A DNA stretch of 64,000 nt from Candidatus Staskawiczbacteria bacterium (GTDB lineage: Bacteria; Patescibacteriota; Minisyncoccia; Minisyncoccales; Staskawiczbacteraceae). The notes below the pieces were generated by a model. The model was not told the origin of the DNA. It was given only the letters and a program-made list of their open reading frames with translations, and made no database searches. The position numbers and the translations under genes were made by a program. This document shows, in pieces, positions 7,243 through 47,902 of the stretch (position 1 is the stretch's first letter; the number at the start of each line of letters is the position of its first letter). The stretch covers positions 139,034 through 203,033 of the forward strand of contig JAHFKV010000001.1 in assembly GCA_023245155.1 (NCBI GenBank). Direction: 5' to 3'.

Positions 7243-7899
7243 CTAGGCCCGGCACCTTCGCAGCTCGCCGTACGTTTGCACTTGCTTGGGGAAACGTACG
7301 AATTGTTTGCAAACCCTGCAGATAATCTGATCTTCGGCGCTCGTAAGCGTTTTTCGGTCCATCCACCCCCTGCAGCCCGCATGCACACCCACGCAGCCAG
7401 ACAGCTCGCTTTCATTTCTGGTGTGATTGACGAAGTACTTCGGATCTATCAAAAGTGGCAGGGGTGGGTACTCGAGCAAAACGATTCTTTGCCCAAGCTG
7501 GACTGGTTCAAGCGGAACGCTCCGCTCAACTTCCGCGCACACCGCGTCGTAAAGCTCGTTTTCGTCTTCATCCCGGTTGATCCGTCCGAAATGGACGCGC
7601 TTGACCGCGCAGTCTAGCCAGCCCGTGGCAAAGTGGTCCGGTTCGCCCCGGCCATCAATCACCCTGTACGAACACAGGGAATTGACGGCGAAGGTGTCAC
7701 CAGTCGGACGACTATCCTGGTCCAGATAGTTGCCCCGGAGCTTACCGGGCAAAACATCGACTGGTTCAAAACCAGCGGCCTTGACGAGCTCAAGAAGAAC
7801 CTTTTCTCCTGGGCGATCAACTTTTTCGATTCGCGGCCAGTCGTGTCCCAACACCAGTTGAACGAATGGCATTATGACAGCATGGGGTTGCAGAGACAT
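7243..7899 (-). CDS. hypothetical protein encoded on GC-rich island A
   Basis: Start moved to M38 (MSLQPH...), preceded by AAAGGA. The longer ORF would overlap tRNA-Ser. 35/60 GC in lines 7321 and 7561. No family recognised. C-terminal Cys/His cluster (CVGVHAGC...CRVC). Confidence 0.5.
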   Translation of the reverse strand: MSLQPHAVIMPFVQLVLGHDWPRIEKVDRPGEKVLLELVKAAGFEPVDVLPGKLRGNYLDQDSRPTGDTFAVNSLCSYRVIDGRGEPDHFATGWLDCAVKRVHFGRINRDEDENELYDAVCAEVERSVPLEPVQLGQRIVLLEYPPLPLLIDPKYFVNHTRNESELSGCVGVHAGCRGWMDRKTLTSAEDQIICRVCKQFVRFPKQVQTYGELRRCRA

Positions 7900-8217: not shown

Positions 8218-9258
8218 ATGTTCAAAAACGTTTCCCCGATTACAAAAATTGCAAAAAAAGCTTGCCCCGCAGTCATTACCGTGATTGTTTCCAAAGACTT
8301 GCCTAAAGTGGAAGATTTTTACAGCTTCCCCTACGGCGGTAAAGAATACATGATGCCCATGATGGATAAAGATGGTAAAGGCATTTTGGAAAAGACCCAG
8401 ATTGGCGGAGGATCTGGCTTTATCATTTCTAAAGATGGTTATGTGATGACCTCAAATCACGTGGTGGCGGATGTAAATGCCGAATACACGGTTATTTTAG
8501 ACCCTGAACACAAATATCCGGCCAAAGTATTGAGCCGGAACCAAATTAATGACACTGCCATTTTGAAAATTGAAGGCAAAAACTTTCTCTATATTGAATT
8601 GGCGGATTCAGATAATATTGAACTGGGAGAAAGCGTGGTAGCCATTGGAAATCCCTTGGGAGAATTTAATGACACCTTAAGCGCGGGCATTGTTTCAGGC
8701 CTTTCCCGCTACATTTCAGCTTACGGGGGTATTGACCACCAAATGCAGAATTTACGCGGGCTGATTCAAACGGATGCCGCTATTAATCCGGGAAATTCCG
8801 GCGGACCACTAGTAAACATGCAAGGCAAAGTCATTGGCATTAACACCGCCACCATTATGGGAGCCCAAAATATTGGCTTTGCGATTCCCATTAATTATGC
8901 CAAAAAAGATTTAGCTGAAGTGAAAAAATACGGCAAATTAGTGGTACCATTTTTGGGAATTAAATATGTATTACTGAACAAAGAAATGGCCAAAACCAAT
9001 AAACTGCCGGTGGAAGATGGAGCTTTGGTAGTAAGGGAAGCTTTGGGCGAACCACCGGTTATTAAGGGGTCAGCTGCCGACAAAGCCGGTATGAAAGAGT
9101 TTGACATCATTTTAGAGTGCGATGGCCAAAAGATTACTGTAGAAAATTCCTTGGGTAGTGTTTTACAAAAGTGTAAGATTGGAGCAGAAACGGTTTTTAA
9201 GGTATTGCGCGATGGGCAGGAAATAATGCTAAGAGCTACGCTAAGAGAAAAAGAATAA
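8218..9258 (+). CDS. HtrA/DegP-family serine protease with PDZ domain
   Basis: Trypsin-fold motifs TSNHVV, DTAILKI and GNSGGPLVN, followed by a PDZ-like C-terminus (VIKGSAADKAGMKEFDIIL). Confidence 0.85.
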   Translation: MFKNVSPITKIAKKACPAVITVIVSKDLPKVEDFYSFPYGGKEYMMPMMDKDGKGILEKTQIGGGSGFIISKDGYVMTSNHVVADVNAEYTVILDPEHKYPAKVLSRNQINDTAILKIEGKNFLYIELADSDNIELGESVVAIGNPLGEFNDTLSAGIVSGLSRYISAYGGIDHQMQNLRGLIQTDAAINPGNSGGPLVNMQGKVIGINTATIMGAQNIGFAIPINYAKKDLAEVKKYGKLVVPFLGIKYVLLNKEMAKTNKLPVEDGALVVREALGEPPVIKGSAADKAGMKEFDIILECDGQKITVENSLGSVLQKCKIGAETVFKVLRDGQEIMLRATLREKE

Positions 9259-9260
9259 AA

Positions 9261-9288
9261 AAGCCCCCGCTTAGGCGGGGGCTTTTTT
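9261..9288. terminator. bidirectional rho-independent terminator
   Basis: aagcccccgc/gcgggggctt stem with ttag loop, flanked by an A-run and a T-run, between convergent genes. Confidence 0.85.
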
Positions 9289-9289
9289 A

Positions 9290-10036
9290 TTAAACTTGAA
9301 TTTTTGAAAACAAGTAACTACCAACACCAATCAGGGCGGCTGCGATAACAACCATGACTACAAAGTCTGCAGGCAGGCCGAAGTGAGCCATTTGGCCAAG
9401 GGTGCCCCGCAGGCCATCAATACCATAACTCAATGGGTTGATTTTAACTACAACATTTAAAACACTGGGCAGATTGCCTGGCGGGAACAATGAACCGGAA
9501 AGGAAAAACAAGGGCATAACAATAAAGTTCATAATCAGGGGGAAGCCAGTCATATCTTGCACCACTGAAGCAATGGCAGTACCCAAGGCCGTGAACATTA
9601 AGGCAATTAAAAACATAAAGACGAGGGCTAGGGGCAGCAAGGCGAAATTGGTAACACGGAATCCAATCAGCATAGAAATGAACAGAACAATAATGCCCTG
9701 GAAGATGGCAACAGTGGCTCCGCCCAGGGTTCTGCCCAACATAATTTCAAAACGGCTCACTGGGGCCACCAAAGTTTCTTTCAAAAAGCCGAATTGCCGA
9801 TCCCAAATAATTTCAATGCCGCCAAAAATAGCGGTAAATAAAATGCTCATGGCAATCACGCCCGGCGCTAAAAACTGGATGTAATTTCCCTGCCCGGCCT
9901 GCTCAAAGATGTGGCCGAAGCCAAAACCCAGCGCCACCAAAAACAAAATGGGCTGGCCTAAAGATCCGATAATCCTGGATTTTGAACGCAGGTATTTTTT
10001 AATTTGTCTTAACCAAAGAGTGTAAATTGCAGTCAT
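9290..10036 (-). CDS. ABC-2 type transporter permease
   Basis: 248 aa with six hydrophobic segments. Directly downstream of the ABC ATPase. Confidence 0.8.
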   Translation of the reverse strand: MTAIYTLWLRQIKKYLRSKSRIIGSLGQPILFLVALGFGFGHIFEQAGQGNYIQFLAPGVIAMSILFTAIFGGIEIIWDRQFGFLKETLVAPVSRFEIMLGRTLGGATVAIFQGIIVLFISMLIGFRVTNFALLPLALVFMFLIALMFTALGTAIASVVQDMTGFPLIMNFIVMPLFFLSGSLFPPGNLPSVLNVVVKINPLSYGIDGLRGTLGQMAHFGLPADFVVMVVIAAALIGVGSYLFSKIQV

Positions 10037-10048
10037 ACGTTTTAAAAG

Positions 10049-10849
10049 TTAGCGTCTCCTTCCCCACATTTTAGCCTGGCCGCGCAGAGTATCTACGCTG
10101 CTGGCTTCTTCAGGGCGAACCTGGTGGCCCGTCAATTCCAAAAAGGCTTCTTCCAAGGTTTGCTTGCCAGTGCGCTGTTTTAATTCCTCCGGGCTGCCCT
10201 GAGCAATGATTTTTCCATGGTCAATAATGGCGATGCGATTAGAAACGCGGTCAGCTTCCTCCATATGGTGAGTAGTCAAAAATACCGTCAAACCTTCTTC
10301 TTGATTTAACTTTTTCAGATAGGCCCAAATGTGATTACGGGTCTGGGGATCAAGACCAATGGTAGGTTCATCCAAAAACAAAATCTTGGGTTTATGCATA
10401 AAGCCGCGGGCTATTTCCAGACGCCGTTTCATGCCGCCTGAAAATTCTCGTACCATACTATCTTTCCGATCCCACAGCTCCACAAAATCTAGTAAAGTTT
10501 TAATGCGTTCCTTACGCTGGGCAGCTGGAATGCCATAGAGCATGCCATGCATGTCCATATTTTCATAAGCGGTTAATTCATCATCCAAACTGGGGTCCTG
10601 GAACACAATACCAAAAGTTTGCCGGGCTTTATTTTGCTGGTGGAAAACGTCATGGCCATCCATGGTGATATTGCCCTCCGTGGGTGCCAACAATGTGGTA
10701 AGCATTTTAATGGTAGTCGTCTTTCCCGCCCCATTCGGTCCCAAAAAAGCAAACATTTCCCCTTTTTTAACGCTAAAGGAAATGTTGTTAACGGCCGTGA
10801 AGTCCCCAAATTTTTTAGTAAGATTTTTAGTTTCAATAATGTTTTCCAT
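10049..10849 (-). CDS. ABC transporter ATP-binding protein (DrrA/NatA-like)
   Basis: Walker A GPNGAGKTT, signature FSGGMKRRLEIA, Walker B ILFLDEPT. Start moved to MENIIETKNL. Confidence 0.9.
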   Translation of the reverse strand: MENIIETKNLTKKFGDFTAVNNISFSVKKGEMFAFLGPNGAGKTTTIKMLTTLLAPTEGNITMDGHDVFHQQNKARQTFGIVFQDPSLDDELTAYENMDMHGMLYGIPAAQRKERIKTLLDFVELWDRKDSMVREFSGGMKRRLEIARGFMHKPKILFLDEPTIGLDPQTRNHIWAYLKKLNQEEGLTVFLTTHHMEEADRVSNRIAIIDHGKIIAQGSPEELKQRTGKQTLEEAFLELTGHQVRPEEASSVDTLRGQAKMWGRRR

Positions 10850-10883
10850 ATGTGTAATACTACCAGAAAATCTATTTTGGCGC

Positions 10884-10916
10884 AAAGAAATGGCGCGCGT
10901 CTTCCGACCGCGCGCC
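10884..10916 (-). terminator. GC hairpin terminator closing island B
   Basis: ggcgcgcg/cgcgcgcc 8-bp stem, followed on the minus strand by ATTTCTTT. Confidence 0.5.
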
Positions 10917-11244
10917 TAACAACTTTACCAACATGGCCAAGGCCTTCCTCTGGGGCGTTGGTGCTCCCGCGGCACGATTGCCGCCCGTTGTTTTCCCGCG
11001 TAGCGGGATGATAATCCTGTTTCTTTTGGGGGAACAACAGCAATTCCCAAAAAAGACAGTGTGTCTGCCATGCGCATCTATACCCGCCGCTTACTGGGTC
11101 TCAACGCAAAACACTGCTTTTCAAAAGAACAGCACCCACGGGCACACGAGTTTTTGCTGGCCTGTACAGCCTCGTCGTGGGATTGCGCCAAACGGAATTT
11201 TCAGGCAACCGCCAAGAGTTTTTTCATGGACACCACCTCCTTTC
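10917..11244 (-). other. GC-rich island B: non-coding or decayed gene (SD+ATG followed by only 8 codons; fragmentary ORFs)
   Basis: 36/60 GC in line 10921. On the minus strand, GAAAGGAGGTGGTGTCC-ATG opens MKKLLAVA-stop. Other frames give only 50-66 aa pieces. Many short GC hairpins (cccgc/gcggg, gcggca/tgccgc, ggcc/ggcc). Confidence 0.3.
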
Positions 11245-11257
11245 TTGATTTTATTAT

Positions 11258-11284
11258 ACCAAAAAATCGCCCAAAGGGCGATTT
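11258..11284 (-). terminator. terminator after minus-strand tRNA-Pro/tRNA-Gly pair
   Basis: aaatcgccc/gggcgattt stem, with a T-run on the minus strand. Confidence 0.6.
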
Positions 11285-11288
11285 TAGA

Positions 11289-11362
11289 TGGAGCGGGTAT
11301 GGGGAGTCGAACCCCACTCATTAGCTTGGAAAGCTAAGGTAATACCGATATACGATACCCGC
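11289..11362 (-). tRNA. tRNA-Gly(TCC), encoded CCA
   Basis: Reverse complement gives acceptor gcgggta/tacccgc, anticodon stem ttagc/gctaa with loop ttTCCaa, and T-loop ggttcgactcc. Confidence 0.85.
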
Positions 11363-11379
11363 TTGCAATATTCTTCTTG

Positions 11380-11450
11380 TCGGGGTACTCGGATTCGAAC
11401 CGAGATCAAACGGTCCCAAACCGTTCGTGCTACCGTTGCACCATACCCCG
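11380..11450 (-). tRNA. tRNA-Pro(TGG)
   Basis: Reverse complement gives acceptor cggggta/taccccg, anticodon stem aacgg/ccgtt with loop ttTGGga, and T-loop ggttcgaatcc. Confidence 0.85.
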
Positions 11451-11524
11451 ATATAAACATATACTATAAGAAAATCCCCGTCTTGTCAAAGGAAAAAATT
11501 TGTGATAATATTGAACTGAAATTC

Positions 11525-11596
11525 GCCCTCGTAGCTCAATGGATAGAGCTTCGCTCTTCTAAGGCGCAGATGTGGGTTCGATTCCTACCGAGGGCA
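11525..11596 (+). tRNA. tRNA-Arg(TCT)
   Basis: Acceptor gccctcg/cgagggc. Anticodon loop ctTCTaa. T-loop ggttcgattcc. Confidence 0.85.
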
Positions 11597-11616
11597 CAGG
11601 GAAGAATTTAAATTAT

Positions 11617-11692
11617 GGAGGCCGTAGTGTAGTGGCCAGCACAACGCTCTGTGGCAGCGTTAGCGGGAGTTCGAATCTCCTCGGTCTCCCCA
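11617..11692 (+). tRNA. tRNA-His(GTG) with encoded G-1 and CCA
   Basis: Extra 5' G opposite C73. Acceptor gaggccg/cggtctc. Anticodon stem acgct/agcgt with loop ctGTGgc. T-loop agttcgaatct. Confidence 0.85.
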
Positions 11693-11697
11693 CACAT

Positions 11698-11735
11698 CAA
11701 AAGCTGCCCCGATATGCATCGGGGCAGCTTTTGTG
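11698..11735. terminator. bidirectional rho-independent terminator
   Basis: aagctgccccgat/atcggggcagctt stem between tRNA-His (+) and rny (-). Confidence 0.85.
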
Positions 11736-13265
11736 TTATCTAGCGTACTCAATTACCCTGTTTTCCCGAATTACCGTCACTTTAATTTCCCCGGGATACT
11801 TTAACTCTTCTTCAATATTAGCGGCAATCTGGCGGGCCATTTTTGCCACGCCCAAATCATCCACCTTATCGGCCCTCACAAACACCCGGATTTCCCGGCC
11901 CGCTTGAATAGCGTAGGTTTTTTCCACGCCTTCAAACTTGTTGGCAATATCTTCCAAAGCTTTCAACCGTTGCAAATAATTTTCGATACTATCTTTCCGA
12001 GCCCCCGGACGGGAAGCGGAAATGCTATCTGCTACAATCACAATGGTACCTTCAATAGAATCAATCGGATAGTCGCCGTGATGCGAACGCATGGCATGGA
12101 TAATTTCTTCTTTTTCCCCGAATTTTTCTAAAATTTTAATCCCAATTTCAATGTGACTGCCTTCCATTTGCTGGTCCAAGGCTTTACCAATGTCATGGAA
12201 CAAACCGGCACGTTTTGCCACTTGGGCATTTGCCCCTAATTCTTCAGCAATGGTTTGAGCAATCAAAGCCACTTCCATGGAATGTTGTAACACATTTTGA
12301 CCATAGCTGGTGCGGTAATGCAGCCGGCCTAAAATTTGCACCAGTTTTTCATGAGCGGCCAGCTGGTTCATATCATACATGGCTTTTTCTCCGGCCTTTT
12401 TAATGACATCGGAAATTTCAGCAGTAGCCTCGGCCACCTTTTCCTCAATTTTAGCCGGCTGAATGCGGCCATCGGCAATCAGCTTATTCAAAGCCATAGC
12501 GGCAATCTGGCGACGGATAGGGTTGAAGCAAGAAATGACCACTGAATCGGGAGTTTCGTCTAAAATCAATTCTACGCCGGTCAATTTTTCAAAGGTTTTA
12601 ATGTTGCGACCCTCTTTTCCAATAATTCTGCCCTTCAAATCTTCGCTGGCCAGAGTAATGGTGGTGGTGCTCAGCTCTAACGTGTGGGCCACAGCACATT
12701 TTTGGATTGCCAAGGTTATAATTTCCCGGGCTTTGGTGGCTAAGGCATCTTGGCCAGATTCTTCCATTTTATGCATTCTGGCTAATAAATCTTTTTCTGA
12801 ATCTTTTTCCACGAGCGATAACAGTTCCTTCTTGGCATCTTCCCGGGTTAAGCTGGCCACTTTTTCCAATTTACCCTCAGCTTCAAGGCGTAACTTGTCC
12901 ACGCTTTCCTTAACTTCTTTCAACTTTTCCACTTTCTGGCCTAGCTCAACTTCTTTTTTATCAAAAGCACTGATTTTTTCTTCCAACAATTTTTCCCGAT
13001 CTAAAATCAGTTGCTGGGCTTTTAAGAATTCGCGCCGGCGCTCATCCACCTCTTTTTGCGAATCTTCAAGGATTTTTGAAGACTTAACTTCAGCTTCTTT
13101 TACCAGCCTGGCGGTTTCTTCTTTGGTATCTTGCACTCTTTTTACTAATTTTGCTTCCAAAGAACCTGCTCGCTGCTTGGCAATCGATTGGCGGATGTAA
13201 TACCCTAAACCCAAGCCCGCGCACAATCCCAGCACAACCAGGAGTAACGATATAATAGTGTCCAT
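11736..13265 (-). CDS. rny: ribonuclease Y
   Basis: N-terminal TM helix, coiled coil, KH domain (GRIIGKEGRNIK) and HD domain (LHDIGKA). Start moved to MDTIISLL. Confidence 0.9.
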   Translation of the reverse strand: MDTIISLLLVVLGLCAGLGLGYYIRQSIAKQRAGSLEAKLVKRVQDTKEETARLVKEAEVKSSKILEDSQKEVDERRREFLKAQQLILDREKLLEEKISAFDKKEVELGQKVEKLKEVKESVDKLRLEAEGKLEKVASLTREDAKKELLSLVEKDSEKDLLARMHKMEESGQDALATKAREIITLAIQKCAVAHTLELSTTTITLASEDLKGRIIGKEGRNIKTFEKLTGVELILDETPDSVVISCFNPIRRQIAAMALNKLIADGRIQPAKIEEKVAEATAEISDVIKKAGEKAMYDMNQLAAHEKLVQILGRLHYRTSYGQNVLQHSMEVALIAQTIAEELGANAQVAKRAGLFHDIGKALDQQMEGSHIEIGIKILEKFGEKEEIIHAMRSHHGDYPIDSIEGTIVIVADSISASRPGARKDSIENYLQRLKALEDIANKFEGVEKTYAIQAGREIRVFVRADKVDDLGVAKMARQIAANIEEELKYPGEIKVTVIRENRVIEYAR

Positions 13266-13351
13266 GGTTTTAATATTAATAATTTTACAAACAAATAAAC
13301 CCACCAACGGAGTGGGCCCGTACACAACACATTGCAGGCCAAAGACCTGTT

Positions 13352-13936
13352 TTATTTAGCTCCTTTTATGACTTCATCAATCAGGCCGTACTTTTGGGCC
13401 TCCTCAGCAGTCATATAAAAATCACGGTCGGTATCTTTTTCAATCATGGCCAAGGGCTGACCGGTTTTGGCGGCCAAAATCTCGTTGATTTTACCCTTGA
13501 TTTTTATAATCTGCTTGGCTGCAATTTCAATTTCCGTTGCCTGTCCCTGGACGCCGCTAGCCACCTGGTGCAGCATGATTTCAGCATTGGGCAAAGCAAA
13601 CCGTTTGCCTTTGGTTCCCGCTGCTAATAGTACTGCTCCCATGGAAGCCGCGAGTCCCACACAAATCGTGGAAACCGGGCACTGGATGAACTGCATCGTG
13701 TCATAAATCGCTAAACCAGCGGTTACTGAACCGCCAGGGCTGTTAATGTAAAGCTTAATATCTTTCTTGGGATCCTTGGAAACCAGATACAGCATTTGTG
13801 CAATTACCACATTTGCGTTCATATCGGTTACCGCGCCAGCCAAAAAAATAATACGCTCTTCTAAAAGCCTAGAAAATATGTCGTATACGCGCTCACCGCG
13901 TTGTGTTTTTTCTACAATAGTTGGTACTATTGGCAT
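13352..13936 (-). CDS. clpP: ATP-dependent Clp protease proteolytic subunit
   Basis: [24 protein letters not shown]...[11 protein letters not shown]...MLHQ. Full-length ClpP signature. Confidence 0.95.
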
Positions 13937-35307: not shown

Positions 35308-35613
35308 ATGAAGACCGAAGCTCCGAAAACTGAAGACCGACGACGGCCACAGCGAAGTCGTCGGGAAAAGGCGAGCACCGCCGAACCGAAAAAACGGAAT
35401 TTGTTGCCCGTCGCGATTATGGCGGGCCTTAGTGGACTGGCGGCCACCGTCCTCGTGGTCACCATCGTCGCCATCGGAGGACTTCTCTTCCTCCGGGCTA
35501 GCGCTAACGCGGACGCCCGGGCGATTGAAACCCGAGAAACCCAGAAGACCAAGGAGGCCCACGACAACTACGACGCTCTCATGAAGGGGGCAAAAATGAA
35601 GGGGAGTAATTAA
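35308..35613 (+). CDS. small single-TM protein encoded on GC-rich island C
   Basis: 101 aa with an Arg-rich N-terminus (DRRRPQRSRRE) and one TM helix (LLPVAIMAGLSGLAATVLVVTIVAIGGLLFL). 36/60 GC in line 35341. Confidence 0.5.
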   Translation: MKTEAPKTEDRRRPQRSRREKASTAEPKKRNLLPVAIMAGLSGLAATVLVVTIVAIGGLLFLRASANADARAIETRETQKTKEAHDNYDALMKGAKMKGSN

Positions 35614-35757: not shown

Positions 35758-38721
35758 ATGCACAACTTTTTAAGGAATATGCCAAAGAAAAAGATATTGC
35801 TCGCTACACTTTTACTGTTAAGCATGGTTGGTGTTTTTTTACCGAGCCCCAAGCCAGCTTCCGCAGAATTTTGTGGTGGTTTAGTGGGAGCAGCTCTTGG
35901 CAACCCCTGCTCGGAGGGTTATTTTTGTTCCGGACCGGTGGCGGGGGTTTGCCTGCCTAACCCATTGAGTTCTGCTACCTCTGCCATTAGCGAAGCAGCC
36001 ATTGATGCCGCGCTTGCCATATTAAAATACTTGGCGTTCATACCGCTTTTTATCACGGGGATCTTAGATTTTATAGCAGGAACTGCATTATTGTGGGTTA
36101 TCAGGATATCTGACGTAGTATCGTTTACCCACAACTCGGCTGTGAATATAGGTTGGCCCATTGCAAGGGATTTTGCCAACATCCTTATTGTCCTGGGATT
36201 CATCGCCATAGCCGTAGCCACTATTTTGCGTTTTAAAGAATATGAAGCCAAAAGCCTTCTGGTTAAATTAATCGTCGCCGCGCTTTTGGTTAACTTCTCC
36301 CTCTTAATATGCGGCGTTATTATTGATGGGTCAAATATTATCATTAGAAACTTTTTGAGCATAGGAAGTGATAGCAGTATTGGCGGGCTTTTTGATTTTA
36401 GATTTTTTAATGCCGCAGTTGCATTGGTGAACAGTCCTGTAGACGCGGCACACGCCGTAGAATTTATGGCGAAGGTGATGGGTAACGTGTTTTACAATAT
36501 CATGTCTGCCATTGTGCTGGCCCTCTTTGCTTTCTTGTTTTTATTCAGGATTGTTGCGCTTTGGATGCTCGTTATTATGTCGCCGATTGCATTTATCTGT
36601 TACGTTTTTCCGGCCACCAAAGGGGTTTGGAATATGTGGTGGAGCAATTTCGTCCAGTGGTGCATCATAGGCATCCCCGGAGCTTTCTTCCTGTATATCG
36701 GAAGAGCGCTCATGGCAAGCATGAGCACAAACCCGCCAGTAACGCCGGTGCTTAATGAAATTTCCGCCGGGGCGGGGGTAAACCAAATTTTCAACGCCTT
36801 GAGCCCCTTTTTCACCATGCTCATCCCCGGACTATTTCTCATTATGGGCTTCCTATTTTCCCTGCAGGTTTCTGCCATGGGATCGGCGGTGGCAATCGGA
36901 TGGGCAAGAAAAGCTGGTGGCTACGCGAAGGCCGGGGCGGGGCGAACCGCAAAGTGGGCTGGCAACCGATCTGGCATAACCCAAGCGTGGGAACGAGCTA
37001 AAGTTTCAGGCGTGGGAGCATTAGAAGGCGCGGGAATCCTAACGGCTGGCAGTAAGGCAACCGCCGATAAAAAGAGGAAAGAAGAAGCTATTAAGCCGCA
37101 TGAAGACAGAATTGATAACATAAAAGACAATGCGGAAGTTGCAAGAATTGCAACCAGCGGCGCCACACCAGAAGAAAGGGCGGCGGCAGTAAAAGTATTG
37201 AATAAAAGAGGAGCGATAGATGCCATTGAAGATAAAAAACAGCGCGAAACAGCAGTGCAGGCCGCAACGGCGTATGTTTCCGCCGGCGAGCTTGCTAAAA
37301 CAGATCCCGAACAGGCTAGAAAAGATGAGAATAAGGTTGCCGATATTAAAAGGAGGCTTAAATTGGCCCACCCTGATTGGAACGAAGCAAAGCTCCAAAC
37401 AAAAGCTGAAGACCAGGCAGTTAGAGAGGCGTACGCAAGAATGGATACCAGCGACCTTGATAAGTTGCAAGAAGTTGACGCAATTGCAAAGTTTGGCAAC
37501 AAGTCTACCAGCGAAGCCGAGAGGTCTAAGATATTAGAAAGAGCCGTTAAAGAAGGCTGGGCTCATAGGCTTGAACAAGAGTACTCTAAGGAAGAAATTG
37601 TTGAGGCAGTTAATACTGCAGAAACCGATTATGGCTCCAATGTAAGGAAGGGTTATGAAAATTCAAATCCAGCAGCAGCCGCGGATAATAAGAAAACCGT
37701 GGCAGACATCCAAAAAGAGGGTGGTAAATTTGCCGACGAAAAAGAGGCTAAGAAAGAAGCGGTGAGAAGAAAAGTGAAGGGACTAACTCCGAGCAAGGCC
37801 GCCGATTTGTCTGAAAAAGTATTTGATGACGAGGAGTATGGACAAGTTATTTTTGATTCGCTTTCCAAAGGCCAAAAAGACAAAATAGAAAAAGACGGCA
37901 GCGCTCAACTGCAACAAAAAATTGATGAAATGAAAGAGCGGACGGGAAACGTTTTGGTTAAGAATGTCATGGCCGATGTTGATGCCATACCAGAAAATCT
38001 GACAAAAGCAGCCAACTCAGAAGAAATTAGTGATGCGGTTAAAAACGCGTCTCCGGAAATCCAAGAAAAACTTAAAGAAAAATTTATTCCAACGGCGGTT
38101 GACCCAGAAACCATCAAAGAAACAACCGTTACCAAAGAAGAAGCAGGAGCGCAAAAGGCAAAAAATATCAGCGTTCTGATACAAGAGAAATTCATGAGAA
38201 GCCAATATGATGATTATGATGCCGCGCTAGAAGCAAAGAACAAAAAAGACGAAGAAGATGGCTATCAGAAGTTGCCAAATCCTTCTGAGGGAGAAACGAG
38301 GCCAACCACGCCACAAGAGCAGGAAAAATTAAGGATTGAGAAACAAGACCCGAAGCTGCGCGATATGTTAAAAAAGTTGGCCGACCCAAAAACAGACGAA
38401 CAAGACAAGGAAAAAATACAGACTTTCCTAAACGAAGTTAACAACCTGCCTCACGCAAGCACGGAAAAAGAATTAGCAGCTAAAAAACAAGTTTTGACGG
38501 CCGCATCTTCGCGCCACGAACAGTTAGTGAAAGAAACAGAGAGGCTTCAGAAAAAAACATCCAAACCGCCAAAACCGGGTGAACCTGGAGCAGTCCGCGA
38601 AAAAGAATTGGCCGATTTGGAAGCCCGGGAAAAAGAAGTTTCAGAAAAACGCGAGCAGATGGTGAAATTAGAAAATGAAATAAAAGCGCTACAAGAAAAG
38701 TTACCAAAGCCCGAAAAGTAA
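35758..38721 (+). CDS. TrbL/VirB6-like polytopic membrane protein with ~590-aa charged C-terminal tail
   Basis: Signal/TM segment plus at least six hydrophobic helices in residues ~60-390. The remainder is a K/E/A-rich low-complexity or coiled-coil region. Located at the head of a VirB4-containing cluster. Confidence 0.55.
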   Translation: MHNFLRNMPKKKILLATLLLLSMVGVFLPSPKPASAEFCGGLVGAALGNPCSEGYFCSGPVAGVCLPNPLSSATSAISEAAIDAALAILKYLAFIPLFITGILDFIAGTALLWVIRISDVVSFTHNSAVNIGWPIARDFANILIVLGFIAIAVATILRFKEYEAKSLLVKLIVAALLVNFSLLICGVIIDGSNIIIRNFLSIGSDSSIGGLFDFRFFNAAVALVNSPVDAAHAVEFMAKVMGNVFYNIMSAIVLALFAFLFLFRIVALWMLVIMSPIAFICYVFPATKGVWNMWWSNFVQWCIIGIPGAFFLYIGRALMASMSTNPPVTPVLNEISAGAGVNQIFNALSPFFTMLIPGLFLIMGFLFSLQVSAMGSAVAIGWARKAGGYAKAGAGRTAKWAGNRSGITQAWERAKVSGVGALEGAGILTAGSKATADKKRKEEAIKPHEDRIDNIKDNAEVARIATSGATPEERAAAVKVLNKRGAIDAIEDKKQRETAVQAATAYVSAGELAKTDPEQARKDENKVADIKRRLKLAHPDWNEAKLQTKAEDQAVREAYARMDTSDLDKLQEVDAIAKFGNKSTSEAERSKILERAVKEGWAHRLEQEYSKEEIVEAVNTAETDYGSNVRKGYENSNPAAAADNKKTVADIQKEGGKFADEKEAKKEAVRRKVKGLTPSKAADLSEKVFDDEEYGQVIFDSLSKGQKDKIEKDGSAQLQQKIDEMKERTGNVLVKNVMADVDAIPENLTKAANSEEISDAVKNASPEIQEKLKEKFIPTAVDPETIKETTVTKEEAGAQKAKNISVLIQEKFMRSQYDDYDAALEAKNKKDEEDGYQKLPNPSEGETRPTTPQEQEKLRIEKQDPKLRDMLKKLADPKTDEQDKEKIQTFLNEVNNLPHASTEKELAAKKQVLTAASSRHEQLVKETERLQKKTSKPPKPGEPGAVREKELADLEAREKEVSEKREQMVKLENEIKALQEKLPKPEK

Positions 38722-39296
38722 TGCCTAAAAGCCATACCCTACATTTTACTGCAGATGTTCAAGAGGCTATTGCAAGCTTAATTTTGCAGTATCATGTGCA
38801 GGTTAATTGGGATGAAAGTGTCTTTGAACTTATCAAAAAACGCAACCCCAAGATTGTAATCTTTGAATTGGCTAAAAAGATTGTAAATAAAGAGGGTAAT
38901 TTCAAAGATATTCCCCATGCATTAAAAAAGGAACTGGGAATGAACCAAAAAGACGCAGAAAGCTTAGCCGACGATATAAAAAATAAGATTGCCGTTTTAG
39001 CTGAAATGGAAGAACTCCAAGAGCAGGTTGCAACAGAAAAAACAGATGCGGAGCAAGAAAAGAAAGAAGCTTTTGCTAAAGCGAAAGAGGAGCTGATGAA
39101 AAAAATTATGGTAAAGAGCGCCCCCGAACCCATCCCTGCTCCAAAACCCCAAAATATTGGTGTGGTAAAGCCCACCATCACTAATGTTGAAGAAAATGCC
39201 AAATCCGTTCAACACACCCAGGAAAGAGAGGTGCAAACTCCCGCGCCAGAGCCAAAACCAAAACAATCTGACACATACCGAGAATCCATAGAATAA
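38721..39296 (+). CDS. hypothetical protein (T4SS-like cluster)
   Basis: 191 aa. Start overlaps the upstream stop (ATGA-type coupling). No family recognised. Confidence 0.45.
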   Translation: MPKSHTLHFTADVQEAIASLILQYHVQVNWDESVFELIKKRNPKIVIFELAKKIVNKEGNFKDIPHALKKELGMNQKDAESLADDIKNKIAVLAEMEELQEQVATEKTDAEQEKKEAFAKAKEELMKKIMVKSAPEPIPAPKPQNIGVVKPTITNVEENAKSVQHTQEREVQTPAPEPKPKQSDTYRESIE

Positions 39297-39297
39297 C

Positions 39298-39711
39298 ATG
39301 GCCCAGTATCCCATTCCACAATTTATTGAACAAGAGGGGAAAATCATTTTCTTCCTCACCTTTAGACAGTTTTTTATGCTCGTGGGCGGAGGAGCTTTGT
39401 GTGCGCTGTATTTTGTTCTATTGCCGTTTTATTTCTTTGTCATGGGATCAATGATAACCCTGGCAATAACCGCTATCATTGCCTTTATTAAGATTGACGG
39501 CTTCCCCGTAATTACCACGATATTAAATTTTGCAGGCTTCAGCGTTGCTTCAAAAAGCTACATGTGGCAAAAAAAAGAGGCGAGTTATCCTTTTAAAATA
39601 CAAAAAAAACCGGAGTTGGGCGAACTGCAGAACACGCCAACAACCGCCCCCGTTAAAATGCAAACCAGCAAACTAAACGACATTAAAAAGCTAATAGAAA
39701 CCAAAAAATAA
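39298..39711 (+). CDS. PrgI-family / VirB3-like small membrane protein
   Basis: YPIPQFIEQEGKIIFFLTFRQFFMLVGG followed by two TM helices. Positioned directly upstream of the VirB4-like ATPase. Confidence 0.55.
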   Translation: MAQYPIPQFIEQEGKIIFFLTFRQFFMLVGGGALCALYFVLLPFYFFVMGSMITLAITAIIAFIKIDGFPVITTILNFAGFSVASKSYMWQKKEASYPFKIQKKPELGELQNTPTTAPVKMQTSKLNDIKKLIETKK

Positions 39712-40376
39712 TGGCTAATCCCGCAACCCAAGAATTTTTAGAAATAAAGGATATCCGCGAGGGGGTTTTAGTTTTGAAAAATCAGGGATTGCGCGGGGTT
39801 TTAATGGTTTCTTCGCTGAATTTCGCCTTAAAATCTTCCGATGAGCAGTCTTCGATTATTTATGCGTACCAAAGTTTTTTAAACTCACTGGATTTTTCCT
39901 GCCAGATTATCATCCAGTCCCGGAACATCAACATCACCCCATATTTAGACTCCATTAAAAGCTTGGAAGAGCATCAAGCAAACGAATTACTAAAAACCCA
40001 AACTGCTTCATATCGGGACTTTATTAAGGAACTAGTTCAAGGAGACAATATTATGACCAAGAACTTTTACGTAGTGGTGCCTTATACCGTCATGGAAGCC
40101 TTGGGAACGGGCAGCGCGCTAAAACAGTCGGGGTTATTTGATTTTTTTAAAAAAGATAAAAGCGCAACGCAGCAGTTAAACGATGAAGATTTTGAAAAAT
40201 GCAAAAACCAGCTTTGGCAACGCATGGAATTTTTAGCCATGGGGCTCAAGCGCTGCGGCTTGGACGTAATGCCCTTAACCACTCCAGAATTAATTGAATT
40301 ATTTTGGGCCATCCACCACCCCGACCAGGCAGAGATAGGATACTACCCGGAAATATTACCGGAATTATTAAAATAA
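39711..40376 (+). CDS. hypothetical T4SS-associated protein
   Basis: 221 aa. FLEIKDIREGVLVLKNQGLRGVLMVSSLNFALKSSDEQ resembles the N-terminal logic of VirB4/TraC-type proteins. Separate reading frame from the ATPase. Confidence 0.4.
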   Translation: MANPATQEFLEIKDIREGVLVLKNQGLRGVLMVSSLNFALKSSDEQSSIIYAYQSFLNSLDFSCQIIIQSRNINITPYLDSIKSLEEHQANELLKTQTASYRDFIKELVQGDNIMTKNFYVVVPYTVMEALGTGSALKQSGLFDFFKKDKSATQQLNDEDFEKCKNQLWQRMEFLAMGLKRCGLDVMPLTTPELIELFWAIHHPDQAEIGYYPEILPELLK

Positions 40377-40381
40377 TATAC

Positions 40382-42187
40382 ATGCCACTTTTTGGAAAGA
40401 AAAAAGACAAAGAACTAGACGATAAACTGTTCCAGGAAGAGACAATTAATATCAAGGATATTATTGCTCCTCCCTACATTGGCGTTTCCCAAGACCATAT
40501 AAAACTGGGTGAAAAAATCGCCAAATCGTTTTTCATCTTTTCTTATCCTCGGTATTTAAACACTGGCTGGCTTTCCCCGGTTATTAACCTGAACGTCCCC
40601 ATGGATATTTCTTTTTTCATCCACCCCATTAACAGCAACCTGATTTTGAAAAAATTGCGCAATAAAATAACCCAAGTTTCTTCAGAATTAATGGAGCGGC
40701 AGGAAAAAGGCCTAATCCGCGACCCCGCTCTTGAAACGGGCTACCAAGACATTGAAAACTTGCGCGATAAAATCATTACCGCTCAGGAAAAAATGTTCCG
40801 GTTCGGGCTCTATATTACTGTGTACGAAAATGATGCCCAAAAAATGAAAGAAACCGAAAGCACTTTCCGGTCTATTTTTGAGTCACGTTTGATTTACATT
40901 AAGCCGGCCACCTTTAAACAAAAAGAGGGTTTTATTTCTTCTATTCCTTATGGCCTAGACCTGATTAATGTGAACGTGCCCATGGACACTGAACCTCTTT
41001 CTACCGCCTTTCCGTTTGTTTCGTTTGACCTCAGCAGCAACGAAGGTATTTTATATGGCATCAACCGTCATAATAATTCTTTAGTGCTTTTCGACCGGTT
41101 CACCTTAGAAAATGCCAATATGGTGGTATTCGCCAAGTCTGGCTCAGGAAAGTCTTATGCTATTAAGCTGGAAATCCTGCGGTATCTTATGTGGGGAGTG
41201 GATGTAATTGTGATTGACCCGGAAAATGAGTATGAATTTTTGGCCGATGGTGTTGGAGGAAGCTTCTTTAATATATCATTGGCATCTGACAGCCATGTAA
41301 ATCCCTTTGACCTGCCCATGCCCGGTCCCGACGACAATCCGGAAGATATTTTACGTTCAAACATCATTAACTTGGTAGGTTTGATGCGAATTATGCTGGG
41401 GGGATTAACTGCCGAAGAAGACAGTATTTTAGACCAAGCCATTACCGAAACCTATGCTGTGCGCGATATCACCCCCCAATCAGATCCAGCTAAATGGCAA
41501 GAAAATATTCCTTTAATGTCTGATTTCGCTGAAATTTTAGAAAATATGACCGGAGCCGAATCCTTGGCCCGGCGCTTGAAAAAATTCACCGAGGGAACTT
41601 TTGCTGGGTTTTTCAACCGAAAGTCAAATATCACCGTTGATAAAAACTTCATTGTTTTTGGCATCCGCGATATGGAAGAATCCCTTAAAACTATTGCCCT
41701 GTATATTATCATGCGCTATGTTTGGAATATTGTGCGCACCCATATTAAAAAACGGATTTTAGTGGTGGACGAAGCCTGGTGGCTAGTGCAATCAGAAGAC
41801 GGCGCCTCTTTCTTGTTCGGCCTGGTAAAACGCGGCCGCAAATATTGGCTGGGAACCACCACCATCACCCAAGACGTGGAAGATTTTATGAAATCCCCCT
41901 ATGGCAAGGCTATCATTACTAACTCGTCGCTCCAAATGTTAATGAAGCAATCTCCTGCTGCCATTGAAATGCTGCAAAAAACCTTTGACCTGACCGAACA
42001 AGAGAAGACGCTGTTATTAGAGTCATCGGTGGGAGAGGGATTGTTTTTTGCCGGTAAAAAACATGTCTTTATGTCGGTTAAAGCCAGTTATACTGAAGAC
42101 CAGATTATCACCACCAACCCAGGAGAGGTGGAAAAGATAAAAGAAGCGCGGAGAAAATTACGTGCAAACCCGAATGAGCAATTATGA
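40382..42187 (+). CDS. VirB4/TraC(PrgJ)-like T4SS ATPase
   Basis: Walker A FAKSGSGKSYAIK, Walker B ILVVDEAWW, and downstream TTTITQDVEDF. Start moved to MPLFGKKK at 40382. Confidence 0.8.
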   Translation: MPLFGKKKDKELDDKLFQEETINIKDIIAPPYIGVSQDHIKLGEKIAKSFFIFSYPRYLNTGWLSPVINLNVPMDISFFIHPINSNLILKKLRNKITQVSSELMERQEKGLIRDPALETGYQDIENLRDKIITAQEKMFRFGLYITVYENDAQKMKETESTFRSIFESRLIYIKPATFKQKEGFISSIPYGLDLINVNVPMDTEPLSTAFPFVSFDLSSNEGILYGINRHNNSLVLFDRFTLENANMVVFAKSGSGKSYAIKLEILRYLMWGVDVIVIDPENEYEFLADGVGGSFFNISLASDSHVNPFDLPMPGPDDNPEDILRSNIINLVGLMRIMLGGLTAEEDSILDQAITETYAVRDITPQSDPAKWQENIPLMSDFAEILENMTGAESLARRLKKFTEGTFAGFFNRKSNITVDKNFIVFGIRDMEESLKTIALYIIMRYVWNIVRTHIKKRILVVDEAWWLVQSEDGASFLFGLVKRGRKYWLGTTTITQDVEDFMKSPYGKAIITNSSLQMLMKQSPAAIEMLQKTFDLTEQEKTLLLESSVGEGLFFAGKKHVFMSVKASYTEDQIITTNPGEVEKIKEARRKLRANPNEQL

Positions 42188-42771
42188 AAAACATCAACTT
42201 CGCATCGCCTGAAACCATTTTGATACTACCCATTGCTATAGTCTTGGATGGGTGCATGTTGCTGATTGGTATTGTGGGAGATTGGTGGGGGTTTAGCGAT
42301 TATGGAACCATTGGATTTTTGGGCTGGATTATTATTGGGATTTGGGCATATTTCAGAAGAGGAGGTATTAGAGAAAAACTAAAACAGGAAGAGAGAAAAG
42401 AGGGGGAGTTGCAAGAAGCCGCGGCAGCACAAGAATTCGCCGGTTCAGGAAATATGGAAGACTGGAAAGAAAACGAGGAAGGCGTTTATCAGTTAAATAA
42501 AAAAGGAAGTGGACAGGTGGAGTCAAGGGGTCCTAAAGAACCAGGCGAAATTACAAAATTTGCTCAAAGAAAAAACCGCCAGAATAAAGCTATGACGGAT
42601 AATCCAAAAAATAAACAGAGTATTACTAATGTAAAAACTAAGGCTAAACAAAAACTTTTAAAAGTTGCTGAAAAATATGGTTTCGGATTTATAGTAAAAG
42701 GAGTGCCAATCGTTGGGGACTTTTGGCCGGGGTTCACGATTTTTGTTTGGAGGGAGCTTGGGGGAGCTTAA
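42184..42771 (+). CDS. hypothetical membrane protein (T4SS-like cluster)
   Basis: Two N-terminal TM helices, a charged middle region and a C-terminal hydrophobic segment. Start overlaps the upstream stop. Confidence 0.45.
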   Translation: MKNINFASPETILILPIAIVLDGCMLLIGIVGDWWGFSDYGTIGFLGWIIIGIWAYFRRGGIREKLKQEERKEGELQEAAAAQEFAGSGNMEDWKENEEGVYQLNKKGSGQVESRGPKEPGEITKFAQRKNRQNKAMTDNPKNKQSITNVKTKAKQKLLKVAEKYGFGFIVKGVPIVGDFWPGFTIFVWRELGGA

Positions 42772-42805
42772 AAAATAATATTGAAAATGCTAGAATAAAC
42801 ATAAG

Positions 42806-44446
42806 ATGCCTAAAAAGTATTTAAAGTTATTATTCCTTTTTGCTGTAATTGTTTTTTTGCTGTCAGCATTTCATCCCGCCTCGGCGCTTGAGGTAACTTA
42901 TCCAAACTTCAGCCAAAACGGTGGTGGGAGCCCTGTTAATAGCAACTCTCTGGTTGATTTTATAAAATATTTCTTTACGTTTTCCATAGCTGCTGCCGGG
43001 GTATTGGGAATATTAACCATTATCATTTCTGGCTTTCAGATATTAATATCGGGGGGCAGCCCCACCGCCATTGGCGATGCCAAAGAACGTATTGTAGGCG
43101 CCGCGCTGGGAATTGTTCTTTTATTTGCTTCGGTTATTATTATTAACACCATTAATCCAACTCTCGCAAGCCCCAGTCTTAGCGGGTTGCCACAGCAACC
43201 GCAACAGGGTGTTCTCTTAAATACTATTTATAATACAACCGTAACAGGGTTTCCCTATCCTCCAGTAGGCGATGCTATTACCACCATCAGCGCGCCTCAA
43301 AGCAGATCATGTATTATATCTAATGCGCCCGCCGGAACTCCGGCATCATGTGTGGTAGCTCAAGACAAGATAATCCCCAACCCTCTTAATAATCCAATTT
43401 TCCCCCAGGGCGACATAACGCTTGATGGCAAAAAAGCCTCGCTCTCCATTACCTATGTCTGCCCCGCCTGGCCAGGCCCAAACGTCCTTTTGTGGGTATA
43501 CAACAAAATAGACTTTCAATTAGACCGCTTGGCGAACGGTAATGATGATGTAAAAACGTATTCTTTGCCATGCAAAAAAATGGGCGAAGTTCCAGCAACG
43601 GTTACCTTGCCCGCAACGGTAAAGTCGTATAAGTGGGCGTATGAACAACCTGGCGTTTACTTTTATAAAACTAATAATTGCAGTGGGATTAGCTTGAATG
43701 TTCAAACTGAAAACGGAAGGGTGGCGCAATTTGACAACGAACCACGAGCCGATAGTCTTGGGGGCAACTTAAACCAGACGCCCCAATCAATGAGGATTGT
43801 AAATGGCCAAACCCAGCAATATGGAGTAATTTTGAATGAATTAGAGGGAGCGACAGGGGAATGCAGTTATCCTATTTTAAATACCCAAGTGCCCACTGGC
43901 AATGACTTTACCAAAGATGTTTGCGAACCAATACCAAATGTCGCTAATGGAAACCAAGGAGACCCTCGCTTTGCTTATGTCTTCCGAACCGCCGAACCAC
44001 GCAATAACTGGAGTTTCCGGTTTGAAAGCAACAGTATGTTTGTAAATGCAAATGAGGATGGTGGTTTTGTTGACAGGATTTGGAGTCTCCCGGGCGCATA
44101 TGGCGGAGATCTTAATAAGTGGTTTGATAATGTTAGAGGAGACGTAACTGACCAGAGTCATTGGCTTACTCGCGATGTTGAACCAATTGCAAATGAATGC
44201 GCTGATCCATGGCCGCCCTGCTTGTCCTTTACAAGATCTAATGGAAACTTCCGGCTGATTTTGTACACCTGGGATCAGTTTAATGAAGCTGACCACATAT
44301 GCCAAGTTTACACTGATCAAGAAAATAATTTCAGTGATGCAACCCCAAACCGCAAGCGCTGGGTTTTCAACGGCGGACGAACTTTTTATGATGTGATGAT
44401 TATTCCCATGCCCAACGCTGCAGCGGCCTCAGGCAGTGGCCCCTAA
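42806..44446 (+). CDS. pilin-like N-terminal domain fused to large secreted Cys-containing domain
   Basis: Signal peptide, then two TM helices joined by ISGGSPTAIGDAKERI (paralogous to 25552..25998), then about 420 aa of soluble domain. Confidence 0.5.
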   Translation: MPKKYLKLLFLFAVIVFLLSAFHPASALEVTYPNFSQNGGGSPVNSNSLVDFIKYFFTFSIAAAGVLGILTIIISGFQILISGGSPTAIGDAKERIVGAALGIVLLFASVIIINTINPTLASPSLSGLPQQPQQGVLLNTIYNTTVTGFPYPPVGDAITTISAPQSRSCIISNAPAGTPASCVVAQDKIIPNPLNNPIFPQGDITLDGKKASLSITYVCPAWPGPNVLLWVYNKIDFQLDRLANGNDDVKTYSLPCKKMGEVPATVTLPATVKSYKWAYEQPGVYFYKTNNCSGISLNVQTENGRVAQFDNEPRADSLGGNLNQTPQSMRIVNGQTQQYGVILNELEGATGECSYPILNTQVPTGNDFTKDVCEPIPNVANGNQGDPRFAYVFRTAEPRNNWSFRFESNSMFVNANEDGGFVDRIWSLPGAYGGDLNKWFDNVRGDVTDQSHWLTRDVEPIANECADPWPPCLSFTRSNGNFRLILYTWDQFNEADHICQVYTDQENNFSDATPNRKRWVFNGGRTFYDVMIIPMPNAAAASGSGP

Positions 44447-45623: not shown

Positions 45624-45949
45624 AATGCATTGATTACCTTAGCCACAGTTTCTTTTATTTCGCTGAATTCTTTTTTTGTTGCGTTAGGCAAGGCAACAAA
45701 CACTACATCGGCGGTGGTTGACATCTTTTCTGTGGCCAAAAATGCGGCTTGTTGCAGCCGCCGCCTCACCTTGTTGCGCACCACCGCTTTTGCGGAAACT
45801 TTCTTGCTGACCACAAATCCAAACCGGCTATTTTTCGCTTGACCCTTCAATACTTTTACGATTAAAAAGTCTCTTTTAAAACCCTTACCGGCTTTAAACA
45901 CTGTTTCAAAATCTCTTTTTTTTGTGAGCCTATGGCTTTTAGGAAGCAT
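45620..45949 (-). CDS. rnpA: ribonuclease P protein component
   Basis: 109 aa, basic, with the VSKKVSAKAVVRNKVRRRL (RNR motif) region. rpmH-rnpA synteny. Confidence 0.85.
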   Translation of the reverse strand: MLPKSHRLTKKRDFETVFKAGKGFKRDFLIVKVLKGQAKNSRFGFVVSKKVSAKAVVRNKVRRRLQQAAFLATEKMSTTADVVFVALPNATKKEFSEIKETVAKVINAL

Positions 45950-45950
45950 A

Positions 45951-46085
45951 CTAGACGGTCAATCTCGTCCGCCCTTTTGCGCGCCTCCGGCTCACCACCT
46001 GTTTGCCATTTTTAGTTTTTTTGCGCTTTAAAAAACCGTGGGTACGCGCCCGTTTCTTCTTTTTTGGTTTATAGGTGAAGCTCAT
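45951..46085 (-). CDS. rpmH: 50S ribosomal protein L34
   Basis: [44 protein letters not shown], 44 aa. The 100-aa ORF in the track is an upstream extension. Confidence 0.9.
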
Positions 46086-46204
46086 GGTTGTTTTTTTTAT
46101 TAATAGTATTGTATAATACCGTATTGTCAGCATAGCAAAAAAAATAACCTTGGTCAAACTCCGTTTTTTGTATTGTGCGTCTGACTGCAATTGACTAACA
46201 CACG

Positions 46205-46213
46205 TTATCCACA
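46205..46213 (+). promoter_or_regulatory. perfect DnaA box TTATCCACA (a second near-box TTAACCACA at 46216-46224)
   Basis: Exact consensus 9-mer in the rpmH-dnaA intergenic region. Confidence 0.7.
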
Positions 46214-46312
46214 GGTTAACCACAGCTGTGAGTATCTTCTTCTTATTTGACAAGCGACCGGTAAATAAGGAAAAATGATTTATTGTAATAATTTAAGGTA
46301 ATTTCTTTATCC

Positions 46313-47671: not shown

Positions 47672-47754
47672 CCTGTAGAATAAATCATAGAAAGCTGCAC
47701 AGTAAAAACTATACCAAAAGAACCCCAGCCCCAACCACTAGGCAAAAACACATA

Positions 47755-47893: not shown

Positions 47894-47902
47894 CCACATT
47901 AC

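Follow-up and report, generated by a model that had tools for sequence, protein, structure and literature searches.

A GC-rich insert beside a tRNA-Gly gene in Candidatus Staskawiczbacteria: a possible foreign non-coding transcription unit

Island B is a stretch of approximately 350 nt with high guanine-plus-cytosine (GC) content, which adjoins a tRNA gene in the ultra-small bacterium Candidatus Staskawiczbacteria (Parcubacteria, candidate phyla radiation [CPR]). It lies in a 64,000-nt stretch of contig JAHFKV010000001.1, called here the window, and is read on the minus strand toward an ABC-2 type exporter operon. A first-pass annotation of this DNA had described the interval 10884–11262 as either a decayed gene cassette or a structured RNA. 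On the analysis presented here, island B is best regarded as strain-specific inserted DNA, foreign and non-coding, that spans about 350 nt (roughly 11240–10892) of an accessory slot. The explanation placed first, held tentatively and just short of an even chance, is that this insert forms a foreign non-coding transcription unit of ~360 nt, which is transcribed and has no conserved function. More likely than not, the RNA body lacks a conserved function; it would then be a remnant of laterally transferred DNA whose signals still work, and not a dedicated regulator. The promoter, the Shine-Dalgarno (SD) sequence, the ATG, and the terminator of island B are all readable directly from the sequence, and a non-coding transcript would remain the most natural product of this set of signals.

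Read along the minus strand, the locus consists of tRNA-Pro, tRNA-Gly, a terminator hairpin, an extended −10 promoter, the SD-box, a mini open reading frame (ORF), a GC-rich body of ~275 nt, a GC hairpin, and the ABC-2 exporter operon (Table 1). The terminator hairpin of the tRNA unit is part of the native backbone and lies outside island B. Transcription of the island would start near 11246, and a T-run followed by a GGTA(T/G/A)A(A/C)AT motif, the arrangement that forms this promoter, was also found ahead of genes in two related loci (L009 and L077). The sequence upstream of the ATG (11227–11225) is GAAAGGAGGTGGTGTCC at 11244–11228, and the SD-box included in it, AAAGGAGGTG, is the strongest SD match ahead of any start codon in the window. 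As the first-pass annotation had stated, this SD-ATG pair opens only the eight codons of MKKLLAVA, which are closed by a TGA at 11203–11201. The GC hairpin terminator reported at the far end was likewise found, with an 8-bp all-GC stem formed by the arms GGCGCGCG (10916–10909) and CGCGCGCC (10899–10892), a predicted energy of −18.2 kcal/mol and the tail ATTTCTTT at 10891–10884. The last piece of the reading frame indeed closes 8 nt short of this hairpin, and the segment does lie directly upstream of the ABC exporter, the ATPase ATG of which (10849) is 34 nt past the terminator tail; the deposited ATPase gene call begins at a later Met. The island B segment was identical throughout in an independent Logan assembly (L081), thus its stop codons are not private to one assembly.

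Table 1. Features of the island B locus and its neighbors (window positions unless a locus is named).
Feature	Position	Strand	Remarks
tRNA-Pro	11450-11379	minus	
tRNA-Gly(UCC), upstream neighbor	11289..11362	minus	synteny with the closest relative ends here
Terminator hairpin of the tRNA-Pro/tRNA-Gly unit	11263..11285	minus	AAAATCGCCC-TTT-GGGCGATTTT; inverted repeat I7; homologous terminator-promoter module 3′ of tRNA-Gly in L009
Putative extended −10 promoter	11253..11261	minus	TGGTATAAT, without −35 box; read from sequence
Perfect Shine-Dalgarno	11234..11243	minus	AAAGGAGGTG, 6 nt before ATG
Mini-ORF	11201..11227	minus	ATG AAA AAA CTC TTG GCG GTT GCC TGA (MKKLLAVA, stop)
23-nt stretch complementary to ABC promoter region 10863-10885	11183..11205	minus	inverted repeat I1, weak significance
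GC-rich body	10925..11200	minus	~55% GC, without coding signature
Intrinsic terminator of island B	10884..10916	minus	8-bp all-GC stem, 9-nt loop, tail AUUUCUUU
Native promoter of the ABC-2 operon	10850..10885	minus	−35 TTGCGC (10885-10880), 17-nt spacer, TGG-TAGTAT (−10 10862-10857), 7 nt to ATG
ABC-2 type exporter ATPase, downstream neighbor, not island	10049..10849	minus	PF00005
ABC-2 exporter permease, 3′ of ATPase	9290-10036	minus	PF01061/PF12698
Terminator-promoter module sites	window 11253-11285; L009 9184-9227; L076 11918-11957; L077 1652-1687		

Both base composition and translation signals set island B apart from the surrounding DNA. The GC content was 52.2% over 10884–11262 and 55.3% over the core (10892–11240) with a maximum of 58% in a 200-nt window, that is, lower than the figure of about 60% given at first, and it falls into the top 1.9% of windows of the same size, the mean of the 64 kb being 43.1%. 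For the SD comparison, 45 nt of sequence ahead of each of ~56 native start codons were scanned for AAGGAGGTG within −20 to −4 of the start; native starts were taken as those of the longest ORFs, so some native SDs may be missed, and the 16S anti-SD lies outside the window. None of the 56 native genes had a match of at least 6 nt and just three had one of 5 nt, while island B carries the full 9-mer and island E, another GC-rich island of the window, a 7-mer. The AAGGAGG motif itself is not enriched (10 copies vs. 8.0 expected in the window). Island B looks foreign because of its GC content (55.3% vs. 43.1%) and its 9-nt SD match (vs. 0/56 native genes), and it is not native to the locus. The motif CAAGAAAGGA(G/C)G, 7–8 nt from the ATG, is common to islands A, B, and E, each of which closes with a GC hairpin terminator, so the view that island B copies the architecture of the other GC-rich islands was borne out. 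GC-rich units with translation signals foreign to the genome fit horizontal acquisition, and horizontal gene transfer is reportedly common in Patescibacteria, where it accounts for up to 13% of genome length (PMC12455944). Many native genes have a TATAAT-like box 5–10 nt before the ATG (e.g., at 10850–10885, 8218, 34430, and 57660), suggesting that native mRNAs may often be leaderless.

The non-coding nature of the insert was indicated by the period-3 Fourier power compared with shuffles, which was used as a frame-independent coding signature. Controls were 43 windows of 303 nt taken from islands A, D, and E, the ABC ATPase, the permease, and ClpP, all of which gave z-scores of 1.9 to 16 vs. 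−0.9 for island B. In sub-windows of 150 nt, island B ranged from −1.1 to +0.3, while the coding controls had a median of 2.7 and only 8% of them were below 0.5. GC values of the three codon positions in the ATG frame were flat (0.53–0.545; 0.54, 0.53, and 0.54 for the first to third position), in contrast to the coding islands, where the second position lies 0.12–0.25 below the other two. No frame of island B was supported by a codon log-odds model trained on islands A, D, and E, which was too weak to decide: the ATG frame scored −0.205 bits/codon, true frames −0.03 to +0.16 in leave-one-out runs, and wrong frames −0.26 to −0.41. The ORF pieces following MKKLLAVA, which had been assigned to other frames, in fact all share the frame of the ATG and are split by TGA and TAG (11080–11078) into pieces of 37–40 and 50 codons, ending with the TAA at 10927–10925. 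Two internal stops in ~113 codons are not unusual, since ~4 are expected by chance at the GC content of island B; the other frames contain 0–3. Reassignment of stop codons was considered and rejected, as it would require both TGA and TAG to be reassigned and the native genes of the window use the standard code. On the plus strand, gene callers annotate an ORF of 134 aa (10933–11337), for which NCBI, ENA, and Logan contain a protein entry. This ORF overlaps the oppositely oriented tRNA-Gly, has neither SD, periodicity, nor homologue and is almost certainly spurious.

Homologue searches gave the same picture for DNA and protein. Among 80 syntenic Staskawiczbacteria/Parcubacteria loci compared by blastn and nhmmer, only the terminator-promoter module of the tRNA unit matched, and the five loci of the closest ABC homologues had no match to island B. 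Neither a DNA homologue nor a second copy was found in the 86 related loci. In searches against 5.8 billion proteins, the 134-codon plus-strand ORF, searched with 112 aa, matched itself alone and the five other frames, in concatenated form, gave nothing at E ≤ 10; these searches used a 5-residue word prefilter, which very distant relatives could escape. Pfam and PHROGs returned no match for the conceptual translations of island B, and when it was compared by tblastn and blastn with the genes that occupy the same slot in relatives (glyoxalase-like, cupin, and beta-lactamase-like), the ABC promoter alone aligned. Phage and plasmid collections yielded only chance matches of 23–30 nt, and IMG/VR nothing in one protein-pattern scan and three DNA-pattern scans. 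In the JGI metagenomes, none of 188 matches of the protein-pattern scan was confirmed, and in all 33 loci found by the 18-mer scan the similarity was confined to the seed. As a control, the protein of island A was taken through a full HMMER scan and gave 269 homologue clusters, which shows that the protein-coding GC-rich islands of this genome are recognizable.

The comparison of related loci located the insert in a variable slot. RNase Y (11736–13262) is encoded two genes upstream of island B and assigns the window to Candidatus Staskawiczbacteria; the closest species representative is 93% identical in this protein. In the closest relative (L001), synteny stops directly after an identical tRNA-Gly; unrelated genes follow there at 9116–13524, including some GC-rich ORFs (~11.7–13.3 kb), and the flank of tRNA-Gly looks like a hot spot of rearrangement or insertion. 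In L011, the tRNA-Gly is only 35 nt from the ABC start. The loci with the most similar ABC ATPase (L082, L083, and L084, 82–86% identity) carry a glyoxalase/bleomycin-resistance-like gene with its own terminator in the slot, L085 and L086 a beta-lactamase-like gene (Beta-lactamase2 domain), and others a cupin. Island B thus occupies a variable accessory slot, because relatives carry different genes ahead of the ABC operon. In L082–L086, L046, L080, L027, and L023, the slot gene upstream of the ABC homologue is in each case followed by a terminator and then by the ABC promoter; the variety of these genes points to a possible small hot spot of resistance or defense functions.

With its deviant GC content, its tRNA-adjoining position, its variation among relatives and its foreign-type translation signals, island B resembles a tRNA-targeted integrative islet. 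It differs from such islets in having no integrase, for which ~350 nt is too short, no att site, and no coding content. A repeat of the tRNA-Gly 3′-end was not found at the distal border, nor was any target-site duplication or flanking direct repeat, and no donor could be identified. An integron attC site was considered at the hairpin, which is preceded by GTTAGGC. However, GTTRRRY is expected ~0.8 times per 400 nt on two strands, the inverse core site is absent, and the hairpin is a plain terminator. The backbone hairpin and promoter that precede the insert belong to a module recurring in several Staskawiczbacteria after the ends of tRNAs or genes, in which a hairpin (AAAATCGCC...GGCGATTTT) is followed by a T-run merging into an extended −10 of the form TGGTAnAAT. 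The homologue of the tRNA-Gly promoter module in L009 sits ahead of a downstream gene and drives it.

According to the explanation we prefer, the extended −10 of the backbone following the tRNA-Gly terminator would fire into the inserted DNA and produce an RNA of ~360 nt. The perfect SD, lying ~3–12 nt from the presumed 5′-end of this RNA, would load a 30S subunit or a ribosome, and just MKKLLAVA would be translated. Such a 5′-proximal ribosome could protect the RNA where decay is of the RNase Y/J type, as STAB-SD does, and the all-GC hairpin would end transcription and insulate the ABC promoter, which begins 7 nt past it, within the U-tract of the hairpin. The transcript may be fairly stable, since the SD is near its 5′-end and RNase Y is encoded two genes away. 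A known parallel is the STAB-SD of Bacillus thuringiensis cry3A, where a 30S subunit bound to a 5′-proximal SD blocks 5′-to-3′ decay (PMC4113751). The likeness would consist in an SD of the GAAAGGAGG type that is placed close to the presumed 5′-end of the transcript and does not start a real protein; in island B, it is followed by eight codons only. The two cases differ in that the SD of island B is provided with an ATG and a mini-ORF, that the host is a CPR bacterium whose genes seemingly do not use SDs, and that RNase Y is encoded in the window while RNase J was not found among the ORFs examined.

Several points weigh against this explanation. Both the start and the end of the transcript rest on consensus signals, and "no function" is an argument from absence, island B being without homologues. 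The intact promoter, SD, and terminator together with the high GC content in an AT-biased genome fit very recent acquisition and selection alike. The explanation does not account for where 300 nt of non-coding GC-rich DNA came from, since any piece of a foreign gene should have retained its period-3 signal. Finally, the word prefilter of the protein searches could miss very distant relatives, and the longest-ORF starts may hide some of the native SDs.

Alternatively, island B would encode a functional orphan or dual-function small RNA of ~360 nt with a 5′ mini-ORF, strain-specific and acting in trans or in cis, which we regard as unlikely yet worth serious attention. The complete set of promoter, SD, and terminator without coding potential speaks for it, as does the GC content that is still high in an AT-biased genome. 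The layout is also like that of dual-function RNAs with a small ORF, such as RNAIII-hld, SgrS-SgrT, and SR1-SR1P, which have their own promoter and terminator, a short 5′ ORF, and a long untranslated body. Island B differs from these in the eight-codon length of its ORF, the lack of conservation, and the absence of a demonstrated structure and target. A candidate target is offered by a 23-nt inverted repeat formed by 10863–10885 and 11183–11205, which is 78% complementary, forms 19 of 23 pairs when G-U is counted, and encloses 297 nt. The predicted duplex of −28.2 kcal/mol was matched by 3.7% of dinucleotide shuffles and by one of 384 genomic control segments. This complementarity could be due to chance, to an old inverted duplication, or to a pairing site on read-through RNA, and in a variant of the small RNA explanation, 11183–11205 could pair with the promoter-proximal region of the ABC operon on read-through transcripts, thereby modulating expression of the exporter. 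On the other hand, the complementarity was spotted post hoc, its significance is marginal, and the target lies 3′ of a strong terminator. No Rfam relative and no homologue in any collection searched was found, hence there is no conservation or covariation to support an RNA function. The predicted fold is no more stable than chance either: the transcript (11246–10884) gave z = −1.76 vs. shuffles and the core (11200–10922) z = −0.87, a stability equaled or exceeded by 35 of 200 shuffles, while pieces of equal length from the protein-coding GC-rich islands ranged from +0.07 to −2.8. The density of GC hairpins pointed out in the first-pass annotation is thus within what the composition gives by chance.

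A decayed protein-coding cassette, that is, a foreign ORF of ~100 codons with a nonsense TGA at codon 9 and a TAG at codon 50, is an improbable source of the segment. In its favor, no more than two internal stops interrupt the SD-ATG frame on its way to the terminator, which it reaches almost directly, the coding islands A, D, and E are built in the same way, and MKKLLAVA resembles the start of a signal peptide. However, period-3 is absent at any scale while all coding controls show it, codon positions are flat in GC, the codon log-odds of the ATG frame lies between the values of true and wrong frames, and the number of stops is within chance. Nor does any frame have a protein homologue, as opposed to the 269 clusters of island A. 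Decay that erases periodicity should also erode the 55% GC and the perfect signals, and neither is eroded. The proposal that island B is a pseudogenized member of the island group was therefore not supported.

In a broader proposal, islands A, B, D, and E would form an undescribed class of GC-rich single-unit cassettes of CPR bacteria, each led by a strong SD and closed by a terminator, inserted beside tRNA genes or promoters in an otherwise SD-less genome. Island B would be its non-coding, regulatory-RNA member, stabilized by the 5′ SD and mini-ORF and pairing near the ABC promoter. We consider this joint claim rather improbable.

It is quite improbable that island B is a novel structured RNA with a specific fold, be it ribozyme-like, riboswitch-like, or another large non-coding RNA (ncRNA). 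Such RNAs are classically discovered as long intergenic regions that are rich in GC while the genome is AT-biased, and island B resembles in this respect the ncRNA candidates of GC-versus-length screens, which are found in long intergenic regions with GC well above the genome mean. Validated members of that group recur in many genomes with covariation, in contrast to island B, which is a singleton. Folding of the whole interval with flanks gave seemingly strong z-scores of −3.6 and −4.4, but these values are inflated, because the tRNA-Gly terminator and long-range pairing with the ABC promoter were included, and they vanish once these native elements are excluded. Rfam 15, the families of which include RNase P, tmRNA, 6S, SRP, T-box, riboswitches, ribozymes, and introns, detected only tRNAs in the whole window at the gathering threshold; thus, the scan for a known ncRNA family that the first-pass annotation had recommended brought none to light. 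At E ≤ 10, the region 10780–11300 yielded only noise, with no T-box or riboswitch match. The best match inside island B was a partial opuB (19.1 bits vs. 75 for gathering, E = 0.29), and a ctRNA_pND324 match (19.4 bits vs. 45, E = 3.3) falls on the tRNA-Gly terminator region. A tmRNA was not found by ARAGORN, and the lack of any homologue also argues against this explanation, since real classes normally span many genomes.

A role as 5′ leader or attenuator of the ABC operon, in which a leader peptide or a riboswitch would act on the GC terminator, is very unlikely. Leader-peptide attenuators of resistance exporters exist, and with its short ORF and intrinsic terminator upstream of an exporter operon, island B is similar to the ermC leader and bmrB-bmrCD. 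Nevertheless, the two differ in that island B is separated from the operon by a promoter, has its ORF far from the terminator and no antiterminator, and is absent in relatives. The 60 nt ahead of the ABC start could be aligned between the window and L082, L083, and L084, which share TTTGCGCC..GATTTT..GTAGTATTA, 5 nt, and the ATG; the promoter is kept in these three loci, all without island B, and a −10-like box 5–8 nt before the ATG occurs in many more distant relatives too. The mRNA of the ABC-2 operon is apparently leaderless, judged from the 7 nt between −10 box and ATG. Since a conserved promoter (TTGCGC-17-TAGTAT-7-ATG) lies between the terminator of the island and the ABC ATG and is present without the island, island B is not the ABC leader, contrary to the leader alternative raised at first. 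Moreover, the corresponding spacer of L011 is only 35 nt, the mini-ORF ends ~285 nt upstream of the terminator stem, and no T-box or riboswitch was detected. Upstream sequence can pair with the 5′ stem at no better than −14.1 kcal/mol, and with interruptions, vs. −18.2 for the terminator, and CGCGC/GCGCG is absent upstream. A miniature inverted-repeat transposable element of 297 nt between the two arms of the 23-nt repeat is scarcely credible. One arm, 10863–10885, belongs to the native ABC promoter, which relatives lacking the island also have, and the element has a single copy in the window and none in the 86 loci or any collection searched. Further copies in the same genome are made less likely by the lack of any other ORF homologous to one of the frames, and no target-site or tRNA-end duplication was seen.

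The other GC-rich islands of the window are protein-coding. Island A (7243–7899, minus strand, 56% GC) adjoins tRNA-Ser and encodes a 218-aa protein without Pfam or PHROG match; its homologues are of similar length with a best identity of 48%, and judged from these sequences, the protein belongs to an uncharacterized but real family. The 101-aa protein of island D (35308–35613, plus strand) has a single hydrophobic segment between charged ends, and the cluster directly at the 3′ side of the island (35758–44446), which contains a 987-aa membrane/coiled-coil protein and a TraG/VirB4-like P-loop ATPase (40304–42187), may be a type IV secretion or conjugation-like module. Island E (61770–62489, minus strand, 60% GC) codes for 239 aa, among which Lys, Ala, Glu, and Pro abound; this protein has no family match. 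The island is equipped with a TTGACA-17-TAGGGT promoter, the AAAGGAGGG SD, and a strong terminator. Two further observations concern other parts of the window. The "intergenic" segment 51264–51425 (minus strand) has a period-3 z of 12.8 and contains an extremely acidic ORF of 53 aa (MEEDLLKNAMNLSDDDDLDESHDDDEEEKMEDDESKEEDDVEDDDTEEPIEEE). The dnaA gene (46313–47671, plus strand) is situated between AT-rich flanks (45624–46312 and 47672–47902), the GC content dropping to 26–28% at ~47.6–48.0 kb, and this region is probably the chromosomal origin.

If island B is indeed a foreign non-coding transcription unit, it would be nothing more than what horizontal transfer commonly leaves behind in a streamlined CPR genome, and its novelty would be modest, that of one more lineage-specific non-coding insert or orphan RNA locus. 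It also calls for caution in two respects: the presence of promoter, SD, ATG, and terminator in a GC-rich island does not make it a gene, and does not oblige one to see in it a pseudogene or structured RNA either, and flanking terminators readily inflate folding z-scores. More generally, translation in this Staskawiczbacteria genome seems to start with hardly any use of SD sequences, and often on mRNAs that are leaderless, while the acquired GC-rich units carry strong SDs. This contrast could mark foreign DNA in CPR genomes, and it raises the question of how such genes are expressed there.

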